Sequence record: NZ_CP110908.1
Length of the DNA: 64,000 nucleotides
From: a plasmid
Strand: one strand, 5' to 3'
Shown here one piece after another: positions 19,977 through 39,735 of this stretch (its first letter is position 1; each line of letters opens with the position of its first letter). The position numbers were made by a program, and so were the translations under genes. The notes under the pieces are model-generated. The model was not told the origin of the DNA and made no database searches. It saw only the letters and a program-made list of their open reading frames with translations.

Positions 19977-20432
19977 GTGAGGAAAACTCTGATTACAGGA
20001 CTACTGGCGATGACATTTTCTGTTAATGCGCAGGACTGTTTTGAAATGGCGGGAAGAGATTATCGGATCGAGCCGGATCTGTTACGGGCGATTTCGTTCC
20101 GTGAGTCGTCCTGGCGTGATAATGCGCTCAACGTTGTATCACAGAGCGAATATGCTGTCGGTAAGATGCAAATACACTCACAAAACTTTTCGCATCTGGC
20201 TCAGTTCGGGATCACTCCCCGACAACTTTATACTGACAATTGCCTTAACATTTACACTGGCGCTTACTACCTTGCCATTGCTTTTAAACGCTGGGGATAC
20301 TCATGGCGGGCTGTAGGGGCTTATAATGCAGGATTTCGTGAAACGGAAGTACAGGAGAAAAAGCGCCAGCAATATGCAAAAGAAATTCAGGCAATTTATG
20401 TTGCCATCAAAAAAAATGCGCCACCAGAGTGA
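19977..20432 (+). CDS. Lytic transglycosylase (F orf169 / gene X, R1 gene 19 homolog)
   Basis: Signal peptide. SLT-domain motifs ...AISFRESSW..., ...AYNAGF.... Confidence 0.8.
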   Translation: MRKTLITGLLAMTFSVNAQDCFEMAGRDYRIEPDLLRAISFRESSWRDNALNVVSQSEYAVGKMQIHSQNFSHLAQFGITPRQLYTDNCLNIYTGAYYLAIAFKRWGYSWRAVGAYNAGFRETEVQEKKRQQYAKEIQAIYVAIKKNAPPE

Positions 20433-20442
20433 CGCACCTGTT

Positions 20443-20973
20443 TTAATCGATAGCCCGCCATATCAATCCACGTTCCGGATGTTGAATAAGACTGACATAA
20501 TCCTTCAGCGCATCCTGACGGGCGACAAGCTGTTTACAGACTTTCGCATATTTATCTCCCATATCCGCCGCCTGCCAGGACAGCCAGTTCATTATCATCA
20601 ACGTTGCAATAATTCCTGCAGCATCAGCACTGACCTCTGACTCAAAATAATTACCGGGGACACACATGTTATAATGTTGTTCTCCTGCTGGTGCGATATA
20701 CCCGGTTTGTGTTGTGGTGAAGATAATTCTGTTCGGGGCCACATTGCCACCAACACCCTGCGGAATGATCCAGTAATTCCAGAAGCCGCCATCATAATCT
20801 GAATGCTGGCGTAACCAGCTGGCGATCATATTGTCAGCGGATGGTGTAAAAAAAAGAGCAGGGATAAAATCAAGTCGTTCATCACCATCGGTTACACAAT
20901 AGCGCTGAAATTTATCTGTTTTAAATTGTTCGGCTGATTCACGAGTGGCGGTTTTGACGTTAATGGTGTGCAT
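20443..20973 (-). CDS. KlcA/ArdB-family antirestriction-like protein (long paralog)
   Basis: 176 aa. Shares the ...[20 protein letters not shown]... motif region with the KlcA-like gene at 32286-32714. Confidence 0.55.
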   Translation of the reverse strand: MHTINVKTATRESAEQFKTDKFQRYCVTDGDERLDFIPALFFTPSADNMIASWLRQHSDYDGGFWNYWIIPQGVGGNVAPNRIIFTTTQTGYIAPAGEQHYNMCVPGNYFESEVSADAAGIIATLMIMNWLSWQAADMGDKYAKVCKQLVARQDALKDYVSLIQHPERGLIWRAID

Positions 20974-21365
20974 TCAGGTTTTCTCCTTATGGATTTATTA
21001 AATCGTTCGACTTCATCACTGAGCGGCAAAGGGCAATGAATAAAAAGGCGTGCAGCGCTTATATACCCTTTTATTTATTCCTGGCTGATGCTAAAAGCAG
21101 CCCTCTGCGAATTGATGAAAGAGACAAACAGAAGAATGCCGGATGAGAGGTGACAGGCAGGAATAAATAATAATATGACAATTATGCGTCTGAGTAATAT
21201 GTGCGGCGTGTAGCGCAGCAGGTATTACCCTGCGCCGCAGGCGCGCGGCCTTTGACAGCAGTCGGGCAGGTTAACGTCGAACGCGTTACGGGAATAGATA
21301 TTGCGAACAAAACCATCAGTACGCAGGGTCATATTTTTACGTGTCATCCTCGTTTCCCCTCTCAC

Positions 21366-21575
21366 TCAGGATTTGTTAAAAATTTCAGACAGTGCGCCAC
21401 GGATGAAATACAGACAGGCATCTGTGCGAGTGAACTTATCGCCGTAATGCGCATGAGCTTCCTGCACACAAGCCACGTTGTAGTGCCCACGGTCGATAAT
21501 CCGTGCCATTTTTTTCACCCATCTTTTGGTAGATTCTTTGGTGGCGGTTTTGACCTTGACGTTCTGTGTGTTCAT
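21366..21575 (-). CDS. Small ORF (69 aa) whose N-terminus and 5' leader duplicate those of the adjacent ardB-like gene
   Basis: MNTQNVKVKTATKES vs MHTINVKTATRES. The upstream leaders share gggtatataa...gccctttgccgc. Confidence 0.3.
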   Translation of the reverse strand: MNTQNVKVKTATKESTKRWVKKMARIIDRGHYNVACVQEAHAHYGDKFTRTDACLYFIRGALSEIFNKS

Positions 21576-21920
21576 CCTGCGTTTCCTCTTGTCTGGTGAT
21601 TAATCCATCTTTCGGTGAGTTCCCTGGCGGCAAAGGGCAAAGTAGCGACGACGTACGGAGGAAGGAAAGGGGCGGAGACAAAAGTTTTTGCGGCCCCAGG
21701 CAAAAAGTTTTGGCGGAGTTTATATACCCCTTGGATGACGACACGGCGGTGCTACGACCAGCCCTCCGCCCGGGGAACTCACCGAAAGATGGATTACCAG
21801 AGGCAGGGAAAGAGGATGAACACACCCGACACGGCGGAACGGCGTGGCGACATCAGAGTGACGGCAGTCTTATCGCCGGCACGGTGAAAAGCGGCGCATC
21901 CGTTTACGGATGCAGCAAGC

Positions 21921-22045
21921 GAGGGGTTGGTGTTGCGACAGCCTGGGATGGACACCCGCTGCCCCAAAGGAGCCGGGCAGAGACAGCATTGCTGGCTCTG
22001 TGCGAAGCATGACAGCCCCGGTTCCCGTCAGGGAAGTCGCCCGGG
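21921..22045. repeat. Leading-region repeat family 1, short copy (putative ssDNA promoter, Frpo/ssi-like)
   Basis: About 125 bp, near-identical to 30975-31098. Confidence 0.5.
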
Positions 22046-22483
22046 AATGGCTGTGATACCCGCCAGTTCAGTAGCCAGACCTGCCAGCGTATAGTTTTTT
22101 TTATCCAGCACATCAGCCCGCAGCAGCAGACTGTTAATCAGAAAGGTATCCAGCACCGGCATTCTGTGCAGACATGTCATTCGTAGCCCGCTGGCAGACT
22201 GCAGCAATATCATCCAGTGGCCACAGGCTTCTCCGGGGCTGGTCAGCATGAAGAAGTGCCGACAATGCGGTGGTATATACCGCAGACAAACTGGCCATAC
22301 TCCACCATACTCACAGAAAATTTCAGGTGAAGCCACCCAGCCCTCCGGCAAAAGCAACTCCCCCGCTACGGCCTGCGTCAGCACCTGACGTGACGACCAG
22401 CCATCAGCGCGAAATTGTTCAAAATCCCCGGGAGTCATGGAAACCAGCGCCGGTAATGTCAGTCCTGTATTCAAATTCGGCAT
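22028..22483 (-). CDS. Hypothetical leading-region protein (151 aa)
   Basis: ORF downstream of psiA. No family recognised. Confidence 0.35.
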   Translation of the reverse strand: MPNLNTGLTLPALVSMTPGDFEQFRADGWSSRQVLTQAVAGELLLPEGWVASPEIFCEYGGVWPVCLRYIPPHCRHFFMLTSPGEACGHWMILLQSASGLRMTCLHRMPVLDTFLINSLLLRADVLDKKNYTLAGLATELAGITAIPGRLP

Positions 22484-22593
22484 CCCTCTATTACCTCTGT
22501 TATTACTGAATTCTGCATGCGCAGCATACCCGGTATCGTACCTGACTTCGCTCCCCTGCTCACTTTTGGGTCAGCAGGGGATAATAACCTGAC

Positions 22594-22920
22594 TCAGCGG
22601 GGAGACTTTTCGCGGAAATACGCCGGGCGAGCTTCCAGTTCACGCCTGATAAATTCATCAGCAAACAACGGCGCGATACGGTTTACACGGCGTTCCAGAT
22701 TCCGCCGACGGGCAGCCGCTTTCCGCTCATCACTCCAGCGCCGGACCTGCCTTTCATCCAGAAAATCGACACACACCGCATACCCTGCGCCCGCCACCCA
22801 ACGGGACATCACCGACTCAGGTGCGGGCTGCCCTGCCTCCACCAATTCTGACACCAGTTCCTGCGGTCCGGGACACGGTGTCCGGGGCAGTCTCCAGCGC
22901 AACGAGTAACGCCACTTCAT
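22594..22920 (-). CDS. Hypothetical leading-region protein (108 aa), Arg-rich
   Basis: Overlaps the psiA stop (ATGA). Confidence 0.35.
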   Translation of the reverse strand: MKWRYSLRWRLPRTPCPGPQELVSELVEAGQPAPESVMSRWVAGAGYAVCVDFLDERQVRRWSDERKAAARRRNLERRVNRIAPLFADEFIRRELEARPAYFREKSPR

Positions 22921-23645
22921 GCCTGACTCCGGTGCATCAGCTTGTTGGGGACCATCCAGCGCTCCAGTTGTCTGACCGGTTCCGGGCTTTCTTTAGCGAG
23001 GGCATCAGATTCAACCATCACACTCCAGAAGGGCTGATTCACCATCATCCAGCGTTCCATTGGTGCCAGCGACGGAAAACGCTCGCTCCAGCGCCAGAAC
23101 ATTTCCTCCAGGTCGTACTGGTGCAGTTCAGTACCCGACCAGCGGGCGCTCCAGCTGCTGACCGTTTCCGGGGTATGAAAAGCCAGCTCAATTTCCGCCT
23201 GCCCCGCCAGCGCCTGATACGCCGTTTCGCGCTGGCACGCCTCCTTCCGGCGCTGGCGGGTGTATTTTTCAGCCCCCAGTTCACTGTGCCGGCGGGTACG
23301 CTCCTGCATCTGAAACTTCGTTTCCGGGAACAGTCGCCAGCCATCCGACAGCGACAGGGGCAACCAGCAACACGCGCCCCGGCTTTCAATCAGCCGGTCG
23401 ATAGCCGCCAGCCAGTCCTGTTTATTTCCCCGCAGAGACTGTCCTGTCAGCCCCGGAGAGAACCAGCCGATATCCTTTACGGTGACACGCTTACTGCCGT
23501 TCAGGATGCGGAAAAAGGCATGGGCATACGCAAACTCCACAACATGAGCATCCCTTTCATACTTGTGCTCCACCTCTGCGATGGCCTGCATTGCAGCACG
23601 ACGCTCATGACTCAGGGGGACCAGTGACAAACTCGCCGGGATCAT
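22917..23645 (-). CDS. psiA: PsiA
   Basis: ...LVPLSHERRAAMQAIAEVE...FAYAHAFFRILNGSKRVTV... aligns with F PsiA. Confidence 0.8.
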   Translation of the reverse strand: MIPASLSLVPLSHERRAAMQAIAEVEHKYERDAHVVEFAYAHAFFRILNGSKRVTVKDIGWFSPGLTGQSLRGNKQDWLAAIDRLIESRGACCWLPLSLSDGWRLFPETKFQMQERTRRHSELGAEKYTRQRRKEACQRETAYQALAGQAEIELAFHTPETVSSWSARWSGTELHQYDLEEMFWRWSERFPSLAPMERWMMVNQPFWSVMVESDALAKESPEPVRQLERWMVPNKLMHRSQA

Positions 23646-24073
23646 TGTGCACCCTCCATCGCCAGAACACTGATAATGCTGGCCTGACTGTAGCCATCGG
23701 CATCGAGGCGGGCGACGAGACTCAACGTGTGGCTGATAACCTCCGGCGACCAGGCTGGCAGCGTGCGCATAACAGAGAACGGGCGACCACTGGCAGGAAT
23801 AAACACCACCATCCAGGACGGGCTGATATCACCGGGGCTGCACACTGCCAGGCTGAAATTGCCGTGGGAGGGTGTGAAACGGATCTGCACCGGGAAAAAA
23901 CCGCCGAACTCGCTGCGGTACTCGCCGTTCAGGTCCCAGTGAACCGGGCAGTCAAGGTCACGCATCACGGCATGGGTCAGTTCGCGGCGTAAATCTTCGC
24001 CACCGTCGCGCCAGTCTTCAAACTCCTGGGGGATCATGGTGTTCAGTACATCGGGGGTAATAATGTTACGCAT
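23642..24073 (-). CDS. psiB: PsiB, plasmid SOS inhibitor
   Basis: ...RRELTHAVMRDLDCPVHWDLNGEYRSEFGGFFPVQIRFTPSHGNFSLAVCSPGD... is near-identical to F PsiB. Confidence 0.85.
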   Translation of the reverse strand: MRNIITPDVLNTMIPQEFEDWRDGGEDLRRELTHAVMRDLDCPVHWDLNGEYRSEFGGFFPVQIRFTPSHGNFSLAVCSPGDISPSWMVVFIPASGRPFSVMRTLPAWSPEVISHTLSLVARLDADGYSQASIISVLAMEGAQ

Positions 24074-24118
24074 AATGTTCTCCTTAAATACCGCCCCGTA
24101 ACGGGGCGGCCTCCGTTA

Positions 24119-26170
24119 TCAGGCTGCGTCGTGCAGGGTGTGGGGGCTGTCTGCATCAAAAGCCGCATCGGGTGCATCAGTACTGCCGTTTTCAGTATCA
24201 GATACGTCGTTTTCTGCATCAGACGGGGATTTTTCTGCATCAGGGGCGCGCATCCAGACAGGCACCCATCGTGTACCGGAAAGACACTGTTCAGCATGGC
24301 TGGCGGCATCTCCTTTCTTCATACTCCCGATATCTGACGCGGCCCCTGACAGTCCGGCCTCTTTCAGCGCCTCCACAATCTGGTTCTTACTCAGCAGACT
24401 GAGGAAGTTTGCCGCCGTTGGCTGCCACCAGTCGCGCAGGTTGAACCCGATTGCCGTTTCAACGCCATCGAGGTCGCTCTGTGTCGTATGCCCCATTGTT
24501 CTGGTCTGCACGCCATCGACAGAACAGGCTGTACAGAAGACCATCAGGGACATCAGCATCTTTCCGTCAAGGGTAAAAAAGGTGGTGAAATCCTTTTTCC
24601 AGCCTTCCGGCAGCAGCGCCTCCAGACGGGCTTTTTCCTGCATCAGACACAGCCATGCCTGACCACTCTTTCCGGTCGGAGCCTCACTCGTGAGTCCGCT
24701 GTGGTGTACCTCCAGACGCATAACAAATGGATCACGGGTGGTGTTGCAATAGTCGAAAACGCAGGTACACAGCCGCCATACCATCAGGGCCACAGCTTTT
24801 TCGGGCTGCTGTACCAGGGCGGCCTGCACTGCCAGCGTTCTTTCTGAAGACATCTTTTTGAGCAGCGGGGCGCTGATCCCCTCCGTCACATCCGGCTTGC
24901 TGCTGACCACATGGAGGGAGCCGCCACTGCCATTATCTTCCTGCCCTTCTTTCGCCTCGTTCTGAGGCTTCTTCTGCACCCCACGCTGGACACAAAGCTC
25001 ACCGTCATACAGGCTGACCACCACGCCACAGGCTGATTTCTGCTCCGGCGTCCACGCCCGGATCGATGCCGCATTTTCAATTTCGTCAATCAGCACCTGA
25101 ATCGCGGCTTCATCCTCAAACGTTTCTGTGGCCTCCTGAGTGACGTACAGTTCATCAAGACGCTGCTGTTCGTCAGCGGTGTACTGTGCTTCCGGCTCTG
25201 GTAACAGCAGATAATGTTCGCGGTCATCACCGTAGTTTCTGACCGCGCCCTCCCGGGCCAGTGACCATGACCATCCTTCATGCAGTTCGATTGCCAGTGC
25301 GGCGGACTCAAGCTTCTCCTGCACCAGTCGTTCGACCAGCACACCGTCTGCCGTACCATCACCCTCCTGGGCGCTGAACAAATCCTCACGCACCACGCCC
25401 CCTGCAGACTCATACATTTCACGCCCGATAAACACGAAGCGGGAGTGGTTCACACCGATTTCGGTGTCCGTGATGGCGCGTTTAAGCATGTGCGCGGGGG
25501 CATAGCTGTGCTGCGCCTTCACACGCTCGTAAATCTCCACCTGACGCACCGGATCATTCTCCAGACTCAGTGCCTGACACTGCTCCACATCGAGCCTGTT
25601 CTCTGCCAGCAGGACGAGAAGTTCCGGGGCAAGGTTCGCCAGCTTCAGCATTCGCTGGACGTGGCGCGAGCTGTACCCCAGCTGGTCACCAATCTGCGCC
25701 GGCGTCTTACCCTGCTCAGACAACGTGCGAAACCCGCTGATTTGTTCTGCCGGATGCATCGCCGCCCTCTGGTTGTTCTCCACCATTGAGGCGACCACCG
25801 CCAGGTCGTCGCTGACGCGCTTGACGACAACGAGATACCCGGCATCGATGCGCTGTTCGCTGAGTAACAGTTGCAGGGCAGCAAGACGACGACCGCCCGC
25901 AGCAACGCCTGACAGGCCATCAGGCAGCGAGTGAACCACCAGATTCTGGATCAGGCCGACCGCGAGAATGGAGTCAGCCATTTCCCTGACACTCTCATCC
26001 GGGTACGGAATAATACGGACGTTCAGCGGGGATTTGACGAGCGCCGACAGCGGCACCATTTCAATCTGAGCGGCCTCAAGCGCCGCCTTAAGGGCTGCGG
26101 CTTCGGCAGGTTTAACCGTTTTTTTGCTGGTTTTCGCGGGGGTTTTTGCTTTAGACTCGGTTACTGACAT
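24119..26170 (-). CDS. ParB/Srx-like nuclease-domain protein of the leading region (683 aa)
   Basis: N-terminal ParB-like domain (...VREMADSILAVGLIQNLVVH...GGRRLAALQLL...). Typical large leading-region ParB-like protein. Confidence 0.75.
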   Translation of the reverse strand: MSVTESKAKTPAKTSKKTVKPAEAAALKAALEAAQIEMVPLSALVKSPLNVRIIPYPDESVREMADSILAVGLIQNLVVHSLPDGLSGVAAGGRRLAALQLLLSEQRIDAGYLVVVKRVSDDLAVVASMVENNQRAAMHPAEQISGFRTLSEQGKTPAQIGDQLGYSSRHVQRMLKLANLAPELLVLLAENRLDVEQCQALSLENDPVRQVEIYERVKAQHSYAPAHMLKRAITDTEIGVNHSRFVFIGREMYESAGGVVREDLFSAQEGDGTADGVLVERLVQEKLESAALAIELHEGWSWSLAREGAVRNYGDDREHYLLLPEPEAQYTADEQQRLDELYVTQEATETFEDEAAIQVLIDEIENAASIRAWTPEQKSACGVVVSLYDGELCVQRGVQKKPQNEAKEGQEDNGSGGSLHVVSSKPDVTEGISAPLLKKMSSERTLAVQAALVQQPEKAVALMVWRLCTCVFDYCNTTRDPFVMRLEVHHSGLTSEAPTGKSGQAWLCLMQEKARLEALLPEGWKKDFTTFFTLDGKMLMSLMVFCTACSVDGVQTRTMGHTTQSDLDGVETAIGFNLRDWWQPTAANFLSLLSKNQIVEALKEAGLSGAASDIGSMKKGDAASHAEQCLSGTRWVPVWMRAPDAEKSPSDAENDVSDTENGSTDAPDAAFDADSPHTLHDAA

Positions 26171-26238
26171 AGTTGATACCTCACTGGATATTGATGACTG
26201 TCCGGCCCTGCGGAGTTAGCGCTCCGGCAGGGCACCTC

Positions 26239-26472
26239 TTACTGCTGTTTACGAATGCCGTAACGTTCGATGTAACGGTTAAGCCAGATCCCGGCATCCG
26301 CTTCAAAATTCCATGCCTGCCACACCATTTCGCCGTTCTGACGAACGACCAGGCGAAAATGCGAACCCTGATCGTCTTCGATGGCGACATTTTCAAACTG
26401 TGCCACCACTGCTTCCGCCTGTGCTCTGGTGAAGGTGTCATCTGGTAACGGTCCGGCGTTATAAATGCTCAT
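26239..26472 (-). CDS. Hypothetical small protein (77 aa)
   Basis: ORF between ssb and the ParB-like gene. Confidence 0.4.
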
Positions 26473-26523
26473 ATTTTCTCCTTTTACTGCCCCGCTGGTT
26501 GCGGGGCGTATTCATCATGCTGG

Positions 26524-27084
26524 TCAAAACGGGGCATCATCATCCATCGGTGGATAATCGTCCGGTAACGGCTGCGGCACCTGCTGAGACGGTGCGGCGC
26601 TCTGACGGCCTTTTCTGCCGCCCTTCGCTTTCGGGGATTTTTCAGGAGTGCCAGCTGGTTGTGACGGAGTGGCTGGCGTCTGCGGTTGTGCGGACTGCTG
26701 CTGCGGAGCCGTGCTCTGAGACTGACCGCCGTCACGACGACCACCCAGCATCTGCATAGTGCCGTTCTGTCCGACAACGATTTCAGTGACATAACGTGTC
26801 ACGCCGCTGTCGTCCTGCCAGTTTCGGGTGCGCAGTTGCCCCTCGACGTACACCTGAGCGCCTTTGCGCAGATACTCGCAGGCCACTTCCGCGAGCTTGC
26901 CAAACAGCACCACGCGATGCCATTCGGTGTTTTCGCGCATCTCTCCGGTCTGTTTATCGCACCAGGACTCCGAAGTGGCGAGGCTGAGGTTAGCGACCGC
27001 GCCGCCATTGGGCATGTAACGGACTTCTGGGTCCTGGCCCAGATTACCCACGATGATGACTTTGTTGATGCCGCGTACGGTCAT
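26524..27084 (-). CDS. ssb: Plasmid single-stranded DNA-binding protein
   Basis: [41 protein letters not shown]...[14 protein letters not shown]... Gly/Gln-rich tail ending DDDAPF. GGAG RBS. Confidence 0.9.
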
Positions 27085-27100
27085 GATGAATCTCCTTCCG

Positions 27101-27575
27101 TTTGTTTTGCTTTTAAAAACCATCACCCGTTGAGTTGCCGGGGCCGCGGTTTTGACGTTTTGCGGGGACCTGCTGAACACTCCCGCTGGTTATTACCTTC
27201 ACCCGTTTGAGAGCCGTTCGCCGCAAGGGCGTAAACGACCACGGCCCGGTGCAGGTGTCCGGGGTGAGCGGTCAATTTTTTACGGTCTAATGAAGCCTGC
27301 GGAATGGCCGGAAAAAATTTATCGCGAAAGGCTTCGCCGTCCCTGGACAGCCAGGCGGGTTGTGGTTGTCTCAGCCCCGGCGAAAGGACTCAAAAGGGTG
27401 AAAAAACCAGGCAAGGAATGAGCAGGCCCCCGCCGCAACGACGGAAAGCGCGGGCGCGAAACGGCGTTGCGCCTTACAGCCCGGCGGCAGTTTGCCGGGG
27501 TGCGAAAAGCGCAGGAAACGGCGCGCCAGGGGCGGCGTGACCGGAACGGTCGCAGCAAGCCTGCTTTTGACTTTC
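27101..27575. repeat. Leading-region repeat family 1, long copy A (putative Frpo-like ssDNA promoter) immediately upstream of ssb
   Basis: About 450 bp homologous to 30585-30985. Contains a TTGACG -35-like box and extensive dyad symmetry. Confidence 0.5.
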
Positions 27576-27966
27576 GCCATCAGACCCTAGCCGTATGGCC
27601 CGAAACCCGCAGGGATTCGGCGGAGACTGGCAGGTGCGCAGCAACTGCCCTGGCGGAGTGGGGCTCGACGACTGGACAGCGCCAGCTGGCCAGGAGCCGA
27701 AGGGGGCCAGTACCCTGATATTTCAGATTTCAAAAACACAGGGAAGCAGCAGCATGAAAAGGAACCGGAACAGGAACAGAAAACATCACCCTGTGAAACA
27801 GCAGAGAAAGCTCTCACCCGACAGACAGTCCAGCCAAAGAGACCATGAACAGACGCGGATGGAGGGCGGCGGCGCGAAGCGCGGCCCCCTTCAGCGCCGC
27901 AGGCGCGCGGCTTTTTCCGGCGCGGACAGACGGGGGCGTCCTCCCCCGCCCGGCTCACAGTGCCCG

Positions 27967-28530
27967 TCAGTTCTGAATTCTGAGAAGGACGGTTGATACA
28001 TCGGTATACGTGAATGTGCCACGCGGCAGCGGCTCCCAGACATCAGACAGGGGTTTCAGGATCTTCTGCTGGCGTGGCCCGTTCAGACAAACCGCCGTCA
28101 GTATTCCGCCTGATTCGAGCAGCGTTAAGGCGTGCTGTATGTGGCGGATATCCTGCGCATGCTGAAACGGCGGATTCATCAGGATTTTGTTCCAGAGGCT
28201 TCCCGGCTTGTATTCCAGAAAATCCCCGCACCGGACGTTAACGCCCGGAAACGCCGCTTGCAGATGTGCGGCTAACGCGGCGTTAAGCTCCACGGCGTCA
28301 CACCGTGCCAGCGGGGCCACCTCCCGGATGGCCCGTAAAATGGCCCCCGTTCCGGCCTCCGGCTCCAGAATACGATCAGAATCGTTAAGCTCTGCCAGGT
28401 CAGCCATCTGACGACAGACCGGATCGGGAGTGACGAAAAGCTGCGAGCTGGCCCGGATTTCGGCCACGGGGGTGCGTCCGTCAAGTCTGGCCCGCATCGC
28501 CTGAATACGGTCCCTGAGTTCACTATGCAT
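27967..28530 (-). CDS. Orphan N6-adenine DNA methyltransferase
   Basis: Motif I EPEAGTGA and motif IV NPPF. Confidence 0.75.
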   Translation of the reverse strand: MHSELRDRIQAMRARLDGRTPVAEIRASSQLFVTPDPVCRQMADLAELNDSDRILEPEAGTGAILRAIREVAPLARCDAVELNAALAAHLQAAFPGVNVRCGDFLEYKPGSLWNKILMNPPFQHAQDIRHIQHALTLLESGGILTAVCLNGPRQQKILKPLSDVWEPLPRGTFTYTDVSTVLLRIQN

Positions 28531-28576
28531 ATGAATGGCCCTTACCTCCCCGGCGTAATGCCGGGGAGTCTGTCGG

Positions 28577-29959: not shown

Positions 29960-30010
29960 GTGAGTTTCTCCTTCCTGTGGTTGCCGCCCCTCGCGGGGCG
30001 GCTCACCTCA

Positions 30011-30241
30011 TCAGTTAAATGCGCGTTTCAGTTCAAGCGTGCGGAGTACCTGCCCGTAGGCGGTATTTGTCATCGCGGGGATATGTACCCCGCGCCCCTT
30101 GCGGATACGTCTGGCGATGTGTCGCCCGAATGCCTTTAACGCGGGATTAATTTCTGATGCCGAAATATCGGCCCGAATGATGCGCGTATGACGGCGGGGC
30201 TTTACAGCCTCTGCGGAAGGTGAAACAATAGTTACTGTCAC
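30011..30241 (-). CDS. Hypothetical small basic protein (76 aa)
   Basis: ORF only. Confidence 0.3.
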   Translation of the reverse strand: MTVTIVSPSAEAVKPRRHTRIIRADISASEINPALKAFGRHIARRIRKGRGVHIPAMTNTAYGQVLRTLELKRAFN

Positions 30242-30333
30242 TTTAGTTAACTCCTTATGGTAGTTAATGAAGCCGTAAAAACCGTTACAGCGATTTTTAC
30301 GGCGTGGGAAAAGCAGGGTTTACCCTGCTTTTT

Positions 30334-30561
30334 TCATGTCTGCGGGTTGCTGCCCGTTCCTTCTGCCTCCTTCTGTACTTTGTCCGTAATGTCTTCGGGG
30401 TCGCCTAAAAACCAGCCGCTGACGGGTTGATAACGTTCGATAAATGCCCTGACAGCCCGCTTTCCGGTCACGGCGCGGATACGGGTAAACATCGGTATAA
30501 CGCCCTGTGCATCGCGTCCGCTGAACGCAATCTGATAAACACGCATCGCCTGAGCCTGCAT
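30334..30561 (-). CDS. Hypothetical small protein (75 aa), first gene downstream of repeat copy B
   Basis: ORF with upstream GGAGG. Confidence 0.35.
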   Translation of the reverse strand: MQAQAMRVYQIAFSGRDAQGVIPMFTRIRAVTGKRAVRAFIERYQPVSGWFLGDPEDITDKVQKEAEGTGSNPQT

Positions 30562-30584
30562 TTTTCTTCCTCCTGGTTTTTAAA

Positions 30585-31098
30585 GAACATCACCCGTTGA
30601 GTTTCGGGAGCCGCGGTGTTGACGTTTGCGGGAACCTGCTGCGCTGCTCCCTCTGGTATTTAACTTCACCCGTTTGAGAACCTTCGCCGCAGGGGCGTAA
30701 ACGAGCACGGGCGATGGCAGCCGTCCTGGGCGCGGTTTACCGCGTGCCATTTACCCTGGACGGCTGACAGCGTTTGTGCTTGTCTCAGCCCGGGCGAAAG
30801 GGGCTTAAACGGTGAAAAGGCACCAGAAGTGGATGAGAGCAGGGGCCCGCCGCAACGTCGGGGCGCGGCACGCGAAACGGCGTTGCGCCTTACAGCCCGG
30901 CAGCCTTACCGCCGGGGTGCGAAAAGCGCAGGAAACGGCGCGCCAGGGGCGGCGTGACCGGAACGGTCGCAGCAAGCCTGCCGTTGACGTTGCGACAGCC
31001 TGGGATGGAAACCCGCTGCCCGAAGGGCCGGGCAGAGACAGCGTAGCTGGCTCAGTGCGAAGCATGACAGCCCCGGTTCCCGTCAGGGAAGTCGCCCG
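30585..31098. repeat. Leading-region repeat family 1, long copy B (about 400 bp similar to copy A plus the 125-bp module seen at 21921-22045)
   Basis: Direct sequence comparison. Confidence 0.5.
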
Positions 31099-31138
31099 TC
31101 GTCAGCGAAATCCGTCAGGAAATATCGGCAGCAGGATG

Positions 31139-31190
31139 AAAGGAAACAGGAACAGGAACAGGAACAGGAACAGGAACAGGAACAGGCAAC
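31139..31190. repeat. Hexanucleotide microsatellite (AACAGG)x~8
   Basis: Perfect tandem hexamers. The homologous position at about 27760-27785 has only 2-3 units. Confidence 0.9.
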
Positions 31191-31295
31191 GTATTATCAC
31201 CGGCAGAAAAAAACCTCACACACTGGCCAGAAAAAACTATCACCCGGCATGAGAAAAATCCGGCCAGCGACAGGCAGAATGCTTCAGGACTGAAG

Positions 31296-31553
31296 CTACT
31301 TTTTAACCTCATCCTCTTTTCTGGCATATTCCGGGGCATTTTTGTCAGGCAGCTGCTCACTGAACTGACGGTAATAGTGCAACCGCCCCCAAAAATACGC
31401 TCTGAGATGTTCAGGCAGTTCTCTGACCACCAGTTCAGCGACCACCGGCATAGCCAGCCTTTCTTTATACGCCACGCCTGAAGCGACCAGGTCAATGGCC
31501 ACCTTATCCTGCTCTTCTTTCGATGTTGCGGCGAGATTAAATCCGGACATCAT
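31296..31553 (-). CDS. Hypothetical protein (~85 aa from [14 protein letters not shown])
   Basis: ORF. The N-terminal extension in the track is probably spurious. Confidence 0.35.
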
Positions 31554-31785
31554 ATACTCCGACAGAAAGGGAAACCGGCGGTAAGTGTACGCAATCTGAG
31601 TCAGGGGGGGAAAAGGACGGGGAGCGGCGCGAAGCGCGGCACGAGTCCTTCCTCCCGCAGGCGCCAGCCTGCATGGTTTTTCGCGCGGGCTGACAGGCGG
31701 CATAACCACCTGCAATCATGCTTACCTGCCCTGTCCTCCCTGTAAGATAAAGTGACCGCCGATGTACACGGCGCACTAATATCTG

Positions 31786-32220
31786 TCAGTAGTTCCCTTC
31801 GGTCTGGTTATGGTGAGGAATATTTGCGGAAAGCAGGTATCGCAACGTATCCAGTGCGGCTTCTTCTTCGGCGGCCCTGTCCTGCGTCTGGTAACGCGGA
31901 AGGTTCATTCCGGCTTCCATCAGGGGCAAAAGCGTGCGCAGCATATCTTCAGGGATGGCAATCTGGCGCGGGGGACGCTGTGCGACTAACTCGCGCAATA
32001 CGCCCTCAACAAAGTTCTGGCCAATACCATCACGCCAGAGCGAATCACTGTCCGACTCGCCAATGGCGCGCAGTACGGCCTGTGTGTCATCAGCGGTCGG
32101 GTTAAACTCCGCCCCCACTTCGCGCACATCGTCTTCACACCAGACGATGACGGCTATCTTTTCGTTGTTCTCGTACACTTTCAGTAAGTCGCAGCAGATG
32201 GTGCTGACGGTTCCGTACAT
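31786..32220 (-). CDS. MYGT-family leading-region protein, paralog 1 (144 aa)
   Basis: Shares the MYGT N-terminus and a VPADLL/IPEDML core with 33967-34371 and 34427-34846. Confidence 0.5.
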   Translation of the reverse strand: MYGTVSTICCDLLKVYENNEKIAVIVWCEDDVREVGAEFNPTADDTQAVLRAIGESDSDSLWRDGIGQNFVEGVLRELVAQRPPRQIAIPEDMLRTLLPLMEAGMNLPRYQTQDRAAEEEAALDTLRYLLSANIPHHNQTEGNY

Positions 32221-32285
32221 AACAGTCTCCCTTAAATAAATGAATGTCGCTTACAGCGGGGCGGCATCGCCGCCCCGTCGGTTAA

Positions 32286-32714
32286 TCAGTCGAGCGCGGC
32301 ATAAATGGCGGTGCATTCAGGGTGAAACGTAATGTGATTCCAGAGCTGGGTATCACGCAGCATGTACAGGCGTGTGAGCGCGGCATTGCCGCAGTCGTGA
32401 TGTGTCCAGCAACGGCGGTTAATGGCAAGCGAGGTCAGAATAATCCCGGCGGCGTCGGCGCTGACGGTACGATCAAACCAGTTTTCACCGTTGATCATGT
32501 GTACCCGATCGCAGTCGGGCATCATGTACCCGCCGCCTTCCGGCAGACGGATGAAATGCCAGGTAACGCCGCTGTATTCGGGCATCCATTTTTTCGCCAG
32601 GGCATACACCTGTAATTCAGCCAGCATAAAATCGGTGCCGAACATGTACGGCAGGAAAGACAGGCGGTCGGATTCTTCGACGTTAAGGGTGTGCTGACGT
32701 GTAGCTAACTGCAT
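32286..32714 (-). CDS. klcA: KlcA/ArdB-family antirestriction protein
   Basis: 142 aa. ...[25 protein letters not shown]... Typical KlcA size and motifs. Confidence 0.75.
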
Positions 32715-33131
32715 GGTAAACCTCCGTAATCACATGGTCTGCGACACCGGGCGGTGCCGTGCATCCAGACCAGTCGGGCGATCGGGCGTGGATACAAGGG
32801 CGCAAGGGAAGCCGCAGCCTGACGCGCACGGCAGACTGGAGCTGAAGGGTGAGACCGTGAAACCTGAGCGGTCGAACGACCGGAAGATAACGGCTGACGT
32901 GAAGGAAGGACCGGGTGACCGCCGCGTGCACTTTACCCTTGTATCCACGACAGCCCGACTACGATGGATGCACGGCACAGCCCGCACACGGCTCCGGACT
33001 GACAGAGCGGAAAACCACCAGGCCACGTCACACCGGGACGGGGCCGCCATAAAAGCGGAGCCGGCGACATCCTTTTCAGCTTCTGAGTCACCGGCGGATA
33101 AAAGAAGGGGTTTCCCCCTTCCCTCCCTGAC

Positions 33132-33899
33132 TTAATCCCCGATGGGGTCTGTGTTGCGGACCTCGTTCAGCACATCCCGCAACACGCGACGGTCAAACCA
33201 GCGGCGGACCGGTTCCCCCGGGAAACGCAGAAGATCGGTCATCACTCCGGCCGCTTCGATTTCCTCCCGGGACTCATTCACCAGGGTGAGCAGGACCGGA
33301 CAAAACCGCGCACCCCGGACCAGTATGCCGTCCAGCACCTGATCCAGCCGTTCCCCGTCCTCACTGTCCAGCCAGTTGTCGTGCTCGTATTCGTCCGCAA
33401 CCAGTCGCCAGTCTCCGAAACGTTTTTCCATCAGCCGCGGCGCGGCAGACGGCACCAGAGCCGCCGCGATGCGCTTCGCGTCCTGACGAACAATGTCACA
33501 GATCCGGTCAATGAAATCTTTCAGGAAGGCCAGCAGGTCCCCGCATTCGGCTTTTGTCAGCCATTCCTGCGCATACGGCAGACTGATACAGGTAAAATCA
33601 GTCAGGGCTTCGGGCCGGGGATAAGACTGAGCCGGATACAGATGCAGCCGGGCGGGCGTACCTGCCAGCCGTTGCGCGCTGGCGGTCAGCAGTTTCGCCC
33701 GTCCGTCATTCAGGGCCTGGCACAACCGGGTTGTCAGCGCCAGGATCTCGTCTGCATCGAGCACGCCACTGGCGAACAGCCAGCCGGGTACGGTTTCGGG
33801 CGCGACGGGCGTCATACCAACTGAGTCGGGCCAGCCGGACCGGCGCAGCAGATTGTCACCGTGGCGCAGAATGAGGGCGTTCAGGGTATCGTTATTCAT
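33132..33899 (-). CDS. Hypothetical protein (~255 aa from MNNDTLNALILRHG)
   Basis: ORF with ATG at 33899. No family recognised. Confidence 0.4.
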   Translation of the reverse strand: MNNDTLNALILRHGDNLLRRSGWPDSVGMTPVAPETVPGWLFASGVLDADEILALTTRLCQALNDGRAKLLTASAQRLAGTPARLHLYPAQSYPRPEALTDFTCISLPYAQEWLTKAECGDLLAFLKDFIDRICDIVRQDAKRIAAALVPSAAPRLMEKRFGDWRLVADEYEHDNWLDSEDGERLDQVLDGILVRGARFCPVLLTLVNESREEIEAAGVMTDLLRFPGEPVRRWFDRRVLRDVLNEVRNTDPIGD

Positions 33900-33966
33900 G
33901 GTTATTCTCTCTGTATACTGTACGGGAAGTGTCGCCCCGTCAGAACGGGCGGGGCGGTCGGTCACA

Positions 33967-34371
33967 TCAGGCGGCCAGGAGCTGCCTGAGCCACGTAATA
34001 TCGGCCTGGGCATCAGCCACGGACGGGTAATGCTGGCTAACAAGCGGCCAGGCCCGGGCGTCCTCTGCGTCCAGCGCCAGCCCCGCGACGTCAGTCAGGC
34101 GGGCCAGCAGATCAGCGGGAACGATGACGGTCGGGATGTCGGCCCGTAATCCGGCATACATCTCCTGGACCGTGCGAAATGTAATACCCTCTTCGGTATG
34201 GCCGGTCACGCTGCCGATTTCCTGCAAAATCGCAGCGGCCTCGCTTTCCGTCATGTTTTCCACCTGGGCCATTACGTCCTGCTTCGTCCAGACCAGCAGG
34301 GCAAAGTGATCATTGTTGCCAAACATACGTTTCAGCTTTTTATTCAGTTCCTTACGGGTGCCGTACATCAT
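33967..34371 (-). CDS. MYGT-family paralog 2 (134 aa)
   Basis: MMYGTRKEL...TVIVPADLLARL... Confidence 0.5.
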   Translation of the reverse strand: MMYGTRKELNKKLKRMFGNNDHFALLVWTKQDVMAQVENMTESEAAAILQEIGSVTGHTEEGITFRTVQEMYAGLRADIPTVIVPADLLARLTDVAGLALDAEDARAWPLVSQHYPSVADAQADITWLRQLLAA

Positions 34372-34426
34372 GATCTTATGTTCCTCTGAGCAGATTCAGT
34401 CCACGCCGCCGGGGCGGCGTGGGTAT

Positions 34427-34846
34427 TCAGTTTTTCAGTAAGGCGCGCACTTTCGCCGTATCAGCCAGGCGGCGGGTCACGCTGTCCGGGACCGGGTGGT
34501 TGCCGTCGCGGGCGGTCCATTCCCTGTGCCATAACGCCTGTTCGGCGGTCGTCAGCAGGGTTTCAAGCAGGTCAGCCGGCACCATCACCGCCGGAACGGC
34601 CTGTTTCACCTGATCAATCAAATCCATGACCGCACTGGCAGACACGCCCGACTCAAGCCGCTGTTCTTCCGGTATGGCGTCCAGACGCGCCAGAACGTCC
34701 TTTATGTCCTGTTCAGACACGGCACATTCCATGCCGTCGGCCAGCGCTTCGATATCCGCCGGGGACCAGACAACCAGGTTCAGCGGGGTTTCTGCGGGAT
34801 ACTGCTCACTCAGCAACCGGCAGAGGGTTTCACAGGTTCCGTACAT
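34427..34846 (-). CDS. MYGT-family paralog 3 (~139 aa)
   Basis: AAGGAG RBS. MYGTCETL...VMVPADLLETL... Confidence 0.5.
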   Translation of the reverse strand: MYGTCETLCRLLSEQYPAETPLNLVVWSPADIEALADGMECAVSEQDIKDVLARLDAIPEEQRLESGVSASAVMDLIDQVKQAVPAVMVPADLLETLLTTAEQALWHREWTARDGNHPVPDSVTRRLADTAKVRALLKN

Positions 34847-34856
34847 GTTTTTCTCC

Positions 34857-35078
34857 TTAGTCCTTAAAGCAGGTATCCAGCTCAAGCATTTCGTTGTACG
34901 CCGCCATAAACAGGGCATTGATGCGGAAGAGCGTCTGACGAGCCAGGCGTTCGGTCAGCACTTCGGAATCAAAGCGATAGCGGTGCTGCATGTCGTTCAG
35001 CGCGTCCCGCAGGTCACTCATGTTGTTGGCCAGTTCCGCCACGTCTGCGCGGAGTTTTTCGTGTCCGGCATAGTTCAT
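34857..35078 (-). CDS. Hypothetical small protein (73 aa)
   Basis: ORF overlapping the methyltransferase start. Confidence 0.3.
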   Translation of the reverse strand: MNYAGHEKLRADVAELANNMSDLRDALNDMQHRYRFDSEVLTERLARQTLFRINALFMAAYNEMLELDTCFKD

Positions 35079-35758
35079 TACGCGGCCTCCGGATAAAAGA
35101 CGTCGTTGGCTGCCGGGCGCTGCATGGCGCGCTGCACGGATGACAGGCGCTCAATTCCGGCTTTGTGGTACTGCTCCATCAGCTCAATCCCGATATAACG
35201 GCGCCCTGCCTGGACGGCGGCCACACAGGTGGAGCCGGAACCGGCAAACGGATCGAGAACAATGGCGTTCGGGTGTGTGAAGCTCTCGATCAACGGTTGC
35301 AGACTGGTCACGGGTTTTTCGGTCGGATGGTGACGGTTGCCGCTGTATTTCCAGCCCAGAACATCCGGTAACGGGTCCGGCGGCAGCGCCGGACGGCCTT
35401 TCGCCAGGATATAGGCGCATTCATGGCGGTAGCCGACATAGGCCGATTTCGACGAGTAGGTTTTGGTGAAAACCAGATGCCCGACCACGCTGAACCCGGC
35501 GCTTTTCCATGCGGCCATGAAGCGATCGACGCGGTTCCAGCCGTAGAAGCTCACCATCAGCGCGTCTTTTTTGAGGACGCGATACATCTCATTGCAGGCT
35601 GGTTGGAGCCATTCATCGGTTTTGTCACCGGCAATACTGCGGCCGGAACGGTCACGGAACCCGACCAGATACGGGGGATCGGTGAGAATGAAATCAACGG
35701 CACGCTCCGGAAAGCCGGACATAATATCGACGCAGTTACCCAGGATAAAACGGGACAT
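35078..35758 (-). CDS. Orphan DNA methyltransferase (beta-class: DPPY then FAGSGST)
   Basis: Motif IV DPPY is N-terminal to motif I FAGSGS. Typical leading-region orphan N6A/N4C methyltransferase. Confidence 0.8.
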   Translation of the reverse strand: MSRFILGNCVDIMSGFPERAVDFILTDPPYLVGFRDRSGRSIAGDKTDEWLQPACNEMYRVLKKDALMVSFYGWNRVDRFMAAWKSAGFSVVGHLVFTKTYSSKSAYVGYRHECAYILAKGRPALPPDPLPDVLGWKYSGNRHHPTEKPVTSLQPLIESFTHPNAIVLDPFAGSGSTCVAAVQAGRRYIGIELMEQYHKAGIERLSSVQRAMQRPAANDVFYPEAA

Positions 35759-35760
35759 AG

Positions 35761-36045
35761 GGACACCTCGTGGTTACAGGGGGCACCCAGGAGGACGTCG
35801 GTACGACGTCCGTTCCCTGCTGCCCGGAGCCTGTACGCCGCGACCGGTAACGGGTCAAGCTGACCGTGGAATAACGAGCCGACAGTCCCCATCATCGGCG
35901 AGCTTATGCCGCGAAAGCAGCTTGAAGGGCGCTCCTTAAAGTGCGAGTGGATGGCGTAAAATCACAGCGACGCCGGACAGGAGCGGAAACGCCGCCCGTC
36001 CCGTGTCCGTCCGGGCGCGGCACACTGGCTCCGGGCAGTGGATAT
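35761..36045. repeat. Leading-region repeat family 2, copy 1 (structured leader immediately upstream of the methyltransferase gene)
   Basis: About 285 bp, ~85% identical to 37451-37740. Contains hairpins gccgaca...tcggc. Confidence 0.5.
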
Positions 36046-36134
36046 CCCCGCGCCCCGCGCGGCATGGATGCGGAGCAGCGCGACATCATTATTCCGGCCT
36101 GAAGTACCGGGCAGTCGGCCTGCCCGGTCTTCCG

Positions 36135-36551
36135 TCAGCGGGTAATATCCCGCCAGTCGTTCCCCCACTCATCGTGCAGTCGCGGCATATCCGTTGAGCC
36201 GGTCACTGTCCACGCATCGAGGAACTTCAGCCCGCGCAGGATACTGTTTTCCACGTCATCGAGCAGAATAATGCTGTTAAACCAGACCACGCCTTCGGGG
36301 AACTCCCAGCGATGCCGGTCATCCTCGCGTCTCAGCGATGGCCACCAGGTGCGCCCCATTTCCAGAATGCCCGCTTCAGCCTGCGCCAGGTCACTCGCGG
36401 AAACCAGGTAATACACCATCATTTCAGTGCCACCGATGTCGACGCTCAGGCCAACAAGCCAGGTATTCAGATTTAATTCCATGTTATTCCGGGCGGTTTC
36501 CCGCCCGCCTCCGGTCAGCCGCCAAAATGCGCCACGTTGTTGATAATCCAC
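36135..36551 (-). CDS. Hypothetical protein (~115 aa from MELNLNTW)
   Basis: ORF track. Overlaps the following gene. Confidence 0.35.
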   Translation of the reverse strand: MDYQQRGAFWRLTGGGRETARNNMELNLNTWLVGLSVDIGGTEMMVYYLVSASDLAQAEAGILEMGRTWWPSLRREDDRHRWEFPEGVVWFNSIILLDDVENSILRGLKFLDAWTVTGSTDMPRLHDEWGNDWRDITR

Positions 36552-37450
36552 TCCGGGCCGATCACATCAGGGAAGCTGTCCTCATCGTCCGGGTCAGCCT
36601 CGCCCCATTCCAGCTCGTCAGTGATGTACACGTCCGTTTCGCCGCTGACGTACCGGGCATAACCGCAGTAATTGCAGCCCTGCTCCGCAAACCAATGCTC
36701 CACTTCACCGCCATATCGCTGACTGAGTTCAGCCACAACGACCTCGCCAACCGGACTCCAGGGGGTGTCAAAATCCACCGTCAGCGTGTTCTCTCCGGCG
36801 AAACAGATATTTGACTCATAACCGACCGGCCACTTGCAACCGTACCGGGTCAGATAGTGGTCATATGACGACGGGACACCCGTCAGCAGGCCACCGTTGA
36901 AGCCGTTCACTTCAATATCCAGGCGCGTCGGCAGGACATCACGCAAATCCACTGGCTCTGCGGCAAACAAATCATCACCAGCATCGCACAGGCTGTTCCA
37001 CCATTCCTCCACCGGCGCAGGCCGGAAACTGTTTCCCCAGTCAAAAGATTTTTGCTGGTACAGCTGCCGGATGACTACCTGTTCCGGTTCACTGAGGGTA
37101 GCCCAGCGGGCATGCCCGATATGGCTGTCCAGCCAGCACTGATGCAGCGTCTGGCAGGTTTCCACATCCAGCACAGCTCCGGCCATAAACATCGCCAGCC
37201 AGTCGCTGTATGCCTGGGCTGAAGCCCGGTTGTCTGCGGCCATCCCGTGAGCAACCAGTTGCGGGTATGGCGTGTAACACAGTTCTGTCAGGGGGCGCAG
37301 TATCCCCGCACAGCCTGCCAGGAAAAGCTGAATACCGTCTTTTCTGGCGCGGCGATGCAGGGACAGCCCGCCTCCGGCAATCCACGTTTTGAGGGCATCA
37401 CTGTTTTGAATACCACTGAACATCAGTCGGTTGGCACACCAGTTCGGCAT
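36515..37450 (-). CDS. Hypothetical 311-aa protein with acidic C-terminus
   Basis: Long ORF directly downstream of repeat family 2 copy 2. Confidence 0.5.
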   Translation of the reverse strand: MPNWCANRLMFSGIQNSDALKTWIAGGGLSLHRRARKDGIQLFLAGCAGILRPLTELCYTPYPQLVAHGMAADNRASAQAYSDWLAMFMAGAVLDVETCQTLHQCWLDSHIGHARWATLSEPEQVVIRQLYQQKSFDWGNSFRPAPVEEWWNSLCDAGDDLFAAEPVDLRDVLPTRLDIEVNGFNGGLLTGVPSSYDHYLTRYGCKWPVGYESNICFAGENTLTVDFDTPWSPVGEVVVAELSQRYGGEVEHWFAEQGCNYCGYARYVSGETDVYITDELEWGEADPDDEDSFPDVIGPEWIINNVAHFGG

Positions 37451-37740
37451 GGGAAGCTCCTTACACAGTCAGGGTGGGCAGGAGGCATCACCGCGATACC
37501 GTTCCCTGCCGCACGCTGCCTGTTCGTCGCGTCCGGTAACGGGTCAACGCCGACCGTGGAATAACGAGCCGACAATTCTCATCGTCGGCGAGCTTATGCC
37601 GCGAAAGCGGCTTGAAGGGCGCGCCTTAAACTGGCGAGGGTATGGCGTAAAATCACAACGACGCCGGGCCTGAGCGATAAAGACGCCCGTCCCGTGACAG
37701 GCCGGACGCGGCACACTGGCAGCGGGTGGCAGTCAGCAAC
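37451..37740. repeat. Leading-region repeat family 2, copy 2
   Basis: Homologous to 35761-36045. Confidence 0.5.
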
Positions 37741-37955
37741 AGGCGGGCAGGAATGGCCGTGGTGATCAGAGGATTTATGGGAAGGGAAAACACCAGAGAG
37801 GGAGCAGATGACATACCAACAGTTCTGCGCCGGTCCTCCACAGGGTTATTAACCGATTCTGTGGATAACCTGACATCTGTTTTTCCAGGCAGAACAGTTA
37901 CCTGACGGGAAACAGCAAAATTTCACTTGCAGGACAGGAAATATCTTAAATAATA

Positions 37956-37971
37956 CTGTATATGCAAACAG
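37956..37971 (+). promoter_or_regulatory. LexA (SOS) box CTGTATATGCAAACAG upstream of umuD
   Basis: Matches the CTGT-N8-ACAG consensus, 20 nt upstream of the umuD ATG. Confidence 0.6.
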
Positions 37972-37990
37972 GTGTTTTAAGAGGTATGCC

Positions 37991-39687: not shown

Positions 39688-39700
39688 TCTGCCACCGAAA

Positions 39701-39718: not shown

Positions 39719-39735
39719 TAGGTTGTATCAACCCG

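Follow-up and report, generated by a model that had tools for sequence, protein, structure and literature searches.

We studied a 17.3-kb interval (positions 20443-37740) within a stretch of 64,000 nucleotides (nt) of the plasmid record NZ_CP110908.1, hereafter the window, to which all coordinates refer. In this interval six long hairpins of the + strand each stand in front of a cassette of genes coded on the - strand, and we consider it highly probable that they are Frpo/ssi-type single-strand promoters, firing from the entering transferred strand (T-strand) and each heading its co-oriented cassette. Seven Citrobacter plasmids matched the whole of the interval at 99.8-99.9% identity, e.g., NZ_CP056911.1, a conjugative plasmid typed as IncFIC / MOBF / MPF_F; the window is from an IncF-like conjugative Citrobacter plasmid, of which the interval is the leading region. 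Gene coordinates were taken from the annotation of NZ_CP056911.1 (99.9% identical). All the coding sequences annotated between 20443 and 37450 are on the - strand, with the sole exception of a + strand 'hypothetical' at 21710-22012, which lies on one of the hairpins and its tail (E1, see below) and is probably spurious.

The core of the origin of transfer (oriT; 19821-19848, + strand) was found between traM and gene X. It presented the inverted repeat GCAAGATTAAATCTTGC followed by GGGTGTGG, which includes the F-like nic motif GGGTGT/GG. In plasmid F the nic motif GGGGTGTGGTGC is on the strand opposite to the coding strand of the leading genes, and the arrangement here matches it; since the oriT/nic layout is the same as in F, the + strand is the T-strand and the template for all the leading genes. 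The orientation of these genes toward oriT, proposed in a preliminary description of this DNA, was thus borne out by the annotation of the nearly identical plasmid, and the comparison of the oriT regions assigned the T-strand.

Hairpins, repeats and tails

The six hairpins, all of them on the + strand, fall into three known classes (see below). F1a (27134-27462, 329 nt) and F1b (30601-30878, 278 nt) are class 1 elements (Frpo/ssp1) that head cassettes B and C, respectively, and E1 (21581-21821, 241 nt), a divergent class-1-like hairpin, heads cassette A. C2 (32748-32984, 237 nt), of class 2 (ssp2), heads cassette D. The Y-shaped F2a (35814-36042, 229 nt) and a second copy of it, F2b (37506-37732, 227 nt), are of class 3 (ssp3) and head cassettes E and F. 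In all six cases the helix base is followed within 5-56 nt (27-56 nt if measured from stable stems) by a strong Shine-Dalgarno sequence and the ATG of the first cassette gene.

The preliminary description had listed two families of noncoding repeats in five copies. The repeats were recovered as direct-repeat blocks where it had placed them: Family 1 consisted of six blocks shared by 27111-27574 and 30578-30991 (79-97% identity) and of a match between 21906-22043 and 30963-31098 (83-96%), and Family 2 joined 35810-36035 with 37499-37726 (83-91%). The count had to be changed, as there are six long T-strand hairpins in three classes. A structured element does precede each co-directional block, as had been stated, and this applies to all six cassettes, but E1 and C2 were missing from that first list. 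The 125-bp module at 21921-22045, previously taken as a third copy of Family 1, has only the tail in common with this family, and the structured element at that place is the 241-nt hairpin at 21581-21821. Family 2, regarded before as a hairpin-rich leader, indeed abuts the starts of the methylase gene and of orf311, but its nature is rather that of a Y-shaped, putative promoter hairpin.

Family 1 is a composite of a ~280-330 nt hairpin and a separately conserved tail; F1a and F1b were 76% identical in the hairpin and 92.5% in the tail. The tails, also described here on the + strand, occupy 27463-27707 (F1a; 79-80% identical to two ColIb-P9 sites), 30879-31098 (F1b; with a 125-nt distal module at 30963-31098) and 21822-22045 (the distal tail of E1, which includes the 21921-22045 module). 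The tails of E1 and F1b shared 88.5% identity, whereas their hairpins are unrelated (59%). By comparison, similarity within Family 2 is confined to the hairpin: F2a and F2b were 84% identical inside it and ~60-67% in the flanks.

Within the tails, a core of ~55 nt, GAGCGCAGG..ACGGCGCG.CAG.GGCGGCGYGACCGGAACGGTCGCWGCAAGCC (27507-27560 in F1a and 30924-30977 in F1b), is almost invariant among this plasmid, Frpo1/2 of F and two ColIb-P9 sites; the class 1 hairpins beside it, by contrast, differ too much between the two plasmid groups, IncF and IncI1, for BLAST to recognise them. In F1a the core forms a perfect 7-bp hairpin, GCGACCG-GAA-CGGTCGC, followed by AGCAAGCC. The E1 tail (21896-21920) presents instead the 7-bp hairpin GCATCCG-TTTA-CGGATGC followed by AGCAAGC, which is a compensatory variant of the core stem. 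The tail-core hairpin precedes the motif WGCAAGCC. Taken as a whole the F1a tail is only weakly structured (z-score of -2.0, see below).

Folding, homology and candidate promoter boxes

The + strand was folded as single-stranded DNA (ssDNA), and z-scores were calculated against dinucleotide shuffles. The z-scores of the hairpins were -9.9 (E1), -5.2 (F1a), -5.2 (F1b), -5.0 (C2), -4.0 (F2a) and -3.6 (F2b), and no shuffled sequence was as stable. A GC-corrected scan of all 64 kb in 300-nt windows gave oriT and the three class-1-type hairpins as the strongest outliers, and the class 2 and class 3 hairpins also passed -2 standard deviations (sd). All six hairpins were more stable on the + than on the - strand, by 2.3-19.6 kcal/mol (19.6 in F1a, 17.1 in F1b, 10 in E1 and 9.6 in F2b). 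Ranked by this asymmetry among the 1275 windows of a 300-nt scan, they took places 2, 4, 11, 24, 99 and 168; oriT showed no asymmetry. Part of the difference can be seen in the pairs themselves, F1a and F1b having 8 G·T pairs each on the + strand that are C·A mismatches on the other strand. A scan of the whole window against Rfam at the gathering threshold found no family.

The folds of classes 2 and 3 are conserved, with compensatory base-pair changes, in agreement with the earlier view of the repeats as structured elements. For class 3 we aligned 19 copies, including 16 further loci from species-representative genomes. Their consensus was a Y-shaped hairpin of 71 pairs in which 98.1% of the cells were paired, and 14 pairs had changed on both sides, as compared with 7.4±1.4 after shuffling of the columns and 1-4 after sliding of the partners. 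Compensatory changes were found in 21 of the 71 pairs of class 2 (11 sequences). These results are evidence that the hairpin structure is under selection, and that it is so on the T-strand.

Elements of the three classes have been reported in other plasmids. According to Wen et al. (2025), pESBL (IncI1, like ColIb-P9) has class 1 elements equivalent to ssi1-3/Frpo, class 2 elements 5' of klcA/ardA and a class 3 element 5' of M.EcoGIX. These authors support the three classes by recipient-specific RNA sequencing and 5' rapid amplification of cDNA ends, with a mapped start site for class 3, give inductions of up to ~500-fold in transconjugants, and state that F has conserved counterparts of classes 2 and 3. 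In F itself, deletions of Frpo1/2 abolish early expression (Couturier et al. 2023). The names ssp1a/b (Frpo1/Frpo2), ssp2 and ssp3 are those of Fraikin et al. (2026), who reported that ssp1 transcripts prime DNA synthesis and that ssp2 of F stalls complementary-strand synthesis until UvrD acts. Samuel et al. (2024) collected 13,089 Frpo homologues in 6,006 elements, and in their functional Frpo-acrIIA4 test anti-CRISPR rescue needed placement on the T-strand in the leading region; a 2026 study found Frpo in 74% of PsiB plasmids. The Frpo', Frpo* and candidate sequences listed in Supplementary Table 2 of Samuel et al. matched four of our six elements at 83-88% identity.

F1a and F1b could be aligned throughout their length with the two Frpo elements of F (Frpo1, located before ygeA, and Frpo2, located before ssb), and BLAST comparison with ssiD gave E values from 1e-26 to 1e-23. 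F1a was 88% identical to Frpo' 1 of Samuel et al., F1b 86% to Frpo' 5, and E1 86% to 'Frpo* 5'. As in F Frpo and ColIb ssi1-3, the class 1 elements are long imperfect T-strand stem-loops (helices of 329, 278 and 241 nt in F1a, F1b and E1, the first to be compared with the published 328 nt) located in the leading region, with the T-strand as template of the genes downstream. One of the copies precedes ssb, as Frpo2 does in F, and F1a and F1b contain the ColIb ssi core GTCCGGGG ... CCCTGGAC. They differ from F Frpo in that identity over the full hairpin is only ~68-69% by BLAST (72-83% in blocks), in that F1b has no AT-rich apical stem, and in that the resemblance of E1 is limited to its apical part and its tail; unlike F, this plasmid also has an extra Frpo copy with a cassette of its own (DUF3560 plus S-adenosylmethionine (SAM) methyltransferase). 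The apical AT-rich stem of E1 was 82% identical to ColIb ssi1 over 44 nt, and E1 has a CCCTGGAC-type core in common with ColIb-P9 ssi. Its membership in class 1 is weaker than that of the other two, because the common ground is limited to this 44-nt apical match and the tail.

TTGACG had been proposed as the -35 box of these elements. This hexamer, however, is on the basal 5' arm and only the F-type copies keep it, ColIb ssi and E1 being without it. Moreover, the F Frpo2 fragment that drove anti-CRISPR expression in the work of Samuel et al. (F 58355-58645, i.e., 8356-8646 of our F locus L002) has no tail, and its 3' arm is 75 nt short; in it only the apical hairpin of ~160 nt can form, and the TTGACG segment is left without a partner. 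TTGACG is therefore probably not a -35 box, and since the fragment active in vivo forms only the apical hairpin, the functional class 1 promoter is most likely apical. The apical 3' arm of F Frpo2 has an AT-rich stem, TTGTGG, 17 nt and GACAGT, which the copies here match weakly (CCCTGGAC at 27341 and 30754). Two arrangements were not conserved across the class 1 copies: TTGACG-N17/18 on the basal 5' arm, whose downstream bubble is not conserved, and TTGAGA-N17-CATACT, which is present only in the old D90178 sequence.

The class 2 hairpin C2 was 85% identical, by alignment columns, to the F region upstream of yfgB/ArdB, 84% to both class 2 sites of ColIb-P9 (directly 5' of klcA and ardA) and 83% to Frpo' 4 of Samuel et al.; homology to the class thus amounts to 84-85% identity over 237 nt. 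Like class 2/ssp2 of pESBL, ColIb-P9 and F, C2 is placed 5' of an ArdB/KlcA gene and, like ssp2, it is a long hairpin with TTGnnn-N15-TAnnnT on its 3' arm; one copy was found here, unlike the two of IncI1 plasmids. The 3' arm reads TTGTAT (32939), 15 nt and TACGAT (32960); the four middle bases of the latter hexamer, ACGA, fall within a 4x4 bubble. On the opposite arm the spacer is longer, at 19 nt. The homologues vary at the inner positions of this second hexamer, while its initial T and A and its final T, like the TTG of the first, are invariant or nearly so. From these motifs, C2 resembles what a pre-melted sigma70 promoter should look like, one that would point toward the helix base and the genes.

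In F, Family 2 aligned with the region that precedes the M.EcoGIX-type methylase, and in ColIb-P9, F2a had 77% identity to 28460-28685, a segment directly adjoining the methylase on its 5' side; identities between the class 3 copies here and the F and ColIb-P9 elements ranged from 76 to 78%. F2a shares with class 3/ssp3 both its position directly 5' of the orthologous N6_N4 methylase and the conserved Y-shaped fold. There are two class 3 copies here, unlike ColIb-P9, whose single site is 5' of the methylase; the DUF1281 gene of ColIb-P9 is upstream of that single element and has no detectable class 3 copy in front of it. One copy is likewise present in E. coli/F-type loci. Paired copies 0.4-1.7 kb apart recur in loci of Citrobacter, Klebsiella and Raoultella (L004, L007, L008, L010 and L014).

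Invariant or conserved motifs were located at defined places of the class 3 fold: xACACT (36021 and 37712) in a bubble of mismatches, at 12-16 nt from the base of the helix, TA[AC]A[AC]T (35957, TAAAAT in F2a, and 37648) in the loop of the second arm, and GCTTGAAGGGCG, invariant, at the three-way junction. The xACACT bubble and the TA[AC]A[AC]T loop are both candidates for the -10 box; that the -35 box is split across the junction, as TTGA/CC, is speculation. A small conserved hairpin with compensatory changes (35793-35811) stands between the helix base and the ribosome-binding site. The class 3 element matched at least 5000 PLSDB records. It was also seen, together with enterobacterial plasmid flanks, on short contigs labelled as Oscillospiraceae, Oscillibacter, Streptomyces morookaense and Acinetobacter idrijaensis (L006, L011, L015 and L018), most likely by contamination with E. 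coli-type plasmids.

Probable single-strand promoters and alternative explanations

On the model of the published elements, the + strand would be nicked at oriT (about 19841) and enter the recipient 5'-first. In the entering strand six GC-rich stretches of 230-330 nt would snap back into long imperfect hairpins, thereby rebuilding the features of a double-stranded promoter, with a -10 region partly unpaired, that the host sigma70 RNA polymerase could use on ssDNA. From each hairpin the polymerase would move along the T-strand in the 3' to 5' direction, toward oriT, and transcribe the cassette that lies immediately on the 5' side of that hairpin. Once the complementary strand is made, the hairpins would be flattened and the promoters turned off, so that SSB, PsiB/PsiA, ArdB/KlcA, methylases and DUF proteins would be produced in a short burst.

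This reading was already that of the preliminary description and is supported by direct homology to the characterised elements of F, ColIb-P9 and pESBL. Its basis in the window is the homology to the F and ColIb elements, the folding biased to the T-strand, the covariation in classes 2 and 3, the orientation of the genes, and the absence of ordinary promoters on the - strand: a scan of 20000-38500 for the sigma70 consensus gave seven hits, all on the + strand and none on the - strand, a result in line with genes that fall silent after conversion to double strand. By analogy with the published homologues (F Frpo1/2, pESBL classes 1-3 and F ssp2), the hairpins would also have promoter activity with comparable start sites, shut-off on conversion to double strand, priming by class 1 transcripts and a roadblock at class 2.

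Several results weigh against it. Promoter activity here is extrapolated from homologues that are 68-85% identical. The ssDNA folding suggested earlier as a check gave stable structures (z-scores from -3.6 to -9.9), but no canonical -35/-10 pair conserved across the class 1 copies was found on either arm by consensus scans of the window, F, ColIb and the sequences of Samuel et al. For class 2 the two strands differ little in stability (-2.3 kcal/mol), the only counterpart of E1 among the sequences of Samuel et al. is one that they class as 'low-certainty', and F2b precedes a DUF1281 gene instead of a methylase gene, a context not seen in ColIb-P9. Finally, the ssDNA-promoter model gives no account of the conserved tails, which the published minimal promoter does not include.

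The same hairpins could be mainly ssi signals that prime complementary-strand synthesis, with gene expression secondary or driven from other promoters. Frpo was in fact first isolated as ssiD, and its transcripts prime DNA synthesis in vitro and, according to Fraikin et al. (2026), also in vivo; the near-invariant tail core beside the class 1 hairpins could belong to such a priming signal. Priming and promoter functions are, however, not exclusive, and the deletions of Frpo1/2 in F abolish early expression downstream. For classes 2 and 3, start sites were mapped in pESBL (Wen et al. 2025), and each hairpin here is directly 5' of a strong ribosome-binding site and ATG, with no sigma70 promoter on the - strand to replace it. 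We therefore hold a mainly priming role to be improbable.

Chances are smaller still that ordinary double-strand promoters make the mRNAs and that the structures act in these RNAs, as long 5' leaders with an attenuating or translation-regulating role. It is true that each hairpin contributes some or all of its sequence to the 5' untranslated region, and that the small hairpin at 35793-35811, between the class 3 helix base and the ribosome-binding site, is conserved with compensatory changes. But all six elements fold better as the + (template) strand than in the mRNA sense, where the 8 class 1 G·T pairs become C·A mismatches; neither a promoter consensus on the - strand (20000-38500) nor an Rfam match was found, and the homologues are inactive as double-stranded DNA according to the literature. 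The explanation to which we give the least credit takes the repeats as functionless recombination scars or miniature mobile repeats. Their mosaic identity (92% in the tails vs. 76% in the hairpins, and 88% between the E1 and F1b tails despite unrelated hairpins) and the breakpoints inside the repeats of the cassette C indel relative to F would fit such an origin. Against it stand their fixed orientation and position, always directly 5' of a cassette on the T-strand, the structure-preserving covariation across species, their presence in at least 5000 plasmid records, and the fact that no terminal inverted repeats or target duplications were noted. On this evidence the RNA-leader, mobile-repeat and pure-priming readings were either rejected or folded into the single-strand promoter model.

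The mechanism, the three classes and the downstream DUF families have already been published (1997-2026), and this plasmid is a clear but ordinary example of them: the finding is correct but already known, given that the same organisation exists in F, in ColIb-P9/pESBL and in thousands of other plasmids. The tail core and the duplicated class 3 copy appear less covered by published work and are small leads rather than discoveries. The tail core is outside the F Frpo2 fragment sufficient for expression and could for this reason be a separate module acting on single strands. It is a doubtful proposal, although less so than the alternatives above, that the core is such a ssDNA module (e.g., a primase/primosome loading site) or else a junction for the exchange of promoter cassettes, and that the second class 3 copy may put the DUF1281/Api92-like cassette under zygotic induction in plasmids of Citrobacter, Klebsiella and Raoultella.

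Gene cassettes and flanking features

All six cassettes, as defined by annotation and Pfam, are on the - strand. Cassette A (20443-21575) has orf69, orf40 and the gene of a 176-amino-acid (aa) protein of the ArdB/KlcA family (PF03230). Cassette B (22028-27084) contains ssb, DUF905, a 683-aa ParB-like protein, psiB, psiA, orf108 and a PsiB-family paralogue, and cassette C (27967-30561) contains orf75, orf76, a DUF3560 protein (460 aa) and a class I SAM methyltransferase. Cassette D (31786-32714) is formed by an ArdB/KlcA gene (142 aa, 32286-32714) and the gene of a DUF1380 protein. The N6_N4 DNA methylase (M.EcoGIX type, PF01555), orf73, two DUF1380 proteins and a 255-aa hypothetical protein are coded in cassette E (33132-35758), and a DUF1281/Api92-like protein (311 aa) and a 115-aa hypothetical protein in cassette F (36135-37450). 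Strong intrinsic terminators on the - strand were located at 20414-20439, directly after cassette A on the oriT side, and at 33105-33119, at the end of cassette E.

Two gene families occur twice. The PsiB family has two members (22028-22483 and 23642-24073), of which one is a canonical psiB and the other a 151-aa paralogue (PF06290, E value of 2e-22) at the distal end of the ssb-psi cassette, and the ArdB/KlcA family is represented by 20443-20973, with an N-terminal extension, and 32286-32714. A further pair, the 'MYGT paralogs' of the preliminary description, was not convincing: orf69 and the 176-aa ArdB-like protein are alike over only 13 N-terminal residues (E value of 0.006). The proposal that the unassigned reading frames behind the hairpins are anti-defence candidates is reasonable, but it is not new, as these families were published by Samuel et al. 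(2024), in whose Supplementary Table 1 DUF905, DUF1380, DUF1281 and DUF3560 rank among the top uncharacterised leading-region families. The gene content here, with ArdB/KlcA, methylases, SSB, PsiB, DUF905, DUF1380, DUF1281 and DUF3560 on the T-strand and umuDC as boundary, is that of the anti-defence islands of those authors, from which it shows no substantive difference; it is another instance of them.

Relative to plasmid F there is an extra unit of one Frpo copy plus cassette C, spanning 27562-30587. The homology breakpoints are inside the Frpo repeats, which fits the gain or loss of cassettes by recombination between promoter copies, a possibility already raised by Couturier et al. (2023). 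Between the F1b tail and the DUF1380 gene, a noncoding stretch of 690 nt holds a perfect (AACAGG)7 microsatellite (31145-31186), at which NZ_CP056911.1 differs by one 6-nt unit (coordinate offset of 8442 vs. 8436).

On the oriT side, the interval is flanked by gene X (19977-20432, + strand; SLT domain) and traM (19125-19508, - strand), and at the other end by umuDC (37991-39687, + strand). A LexA-box-like sequence, CTGTATATGCAAACAG, lies just upstream of umuD (37956-37971). It represents a double-strand promoter of the ordinary, SOS-regulated type, and with it the hairpin-driven region comes to its end. Farther on, 39501-39950 was strongly structured in the GC-corrected scan (-3 to -3.6 sd), with no strand asymmetry, at the convergent ends of umuC and a RES-family gene; this structure is probably a pair of shared terminators.

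In public annotations some hairpins are directly overlaid by coding sequences labelled 'hypothetical protein', as in 21710-22012 (+) here and on the class 3 elements of F (3785-4090 of locus L002) and ColIb-P9 (28481-28792 of locus L019). They are probably spurious reading frames arising from GC-rich palindromic sequence. Because such annotations persist, the well-resolved six-promoter map of one Citrobacter IncF-like plasmid, which is what this window adds, could be used as an annotation template. Single-strand promoters explain how anti-restriction, anti-SOS and methylase genes are expressed within minutes of entry, before the plasmid becomes double-stranded, and this early expression makes them relevant to the spread of antibiotic resistance.

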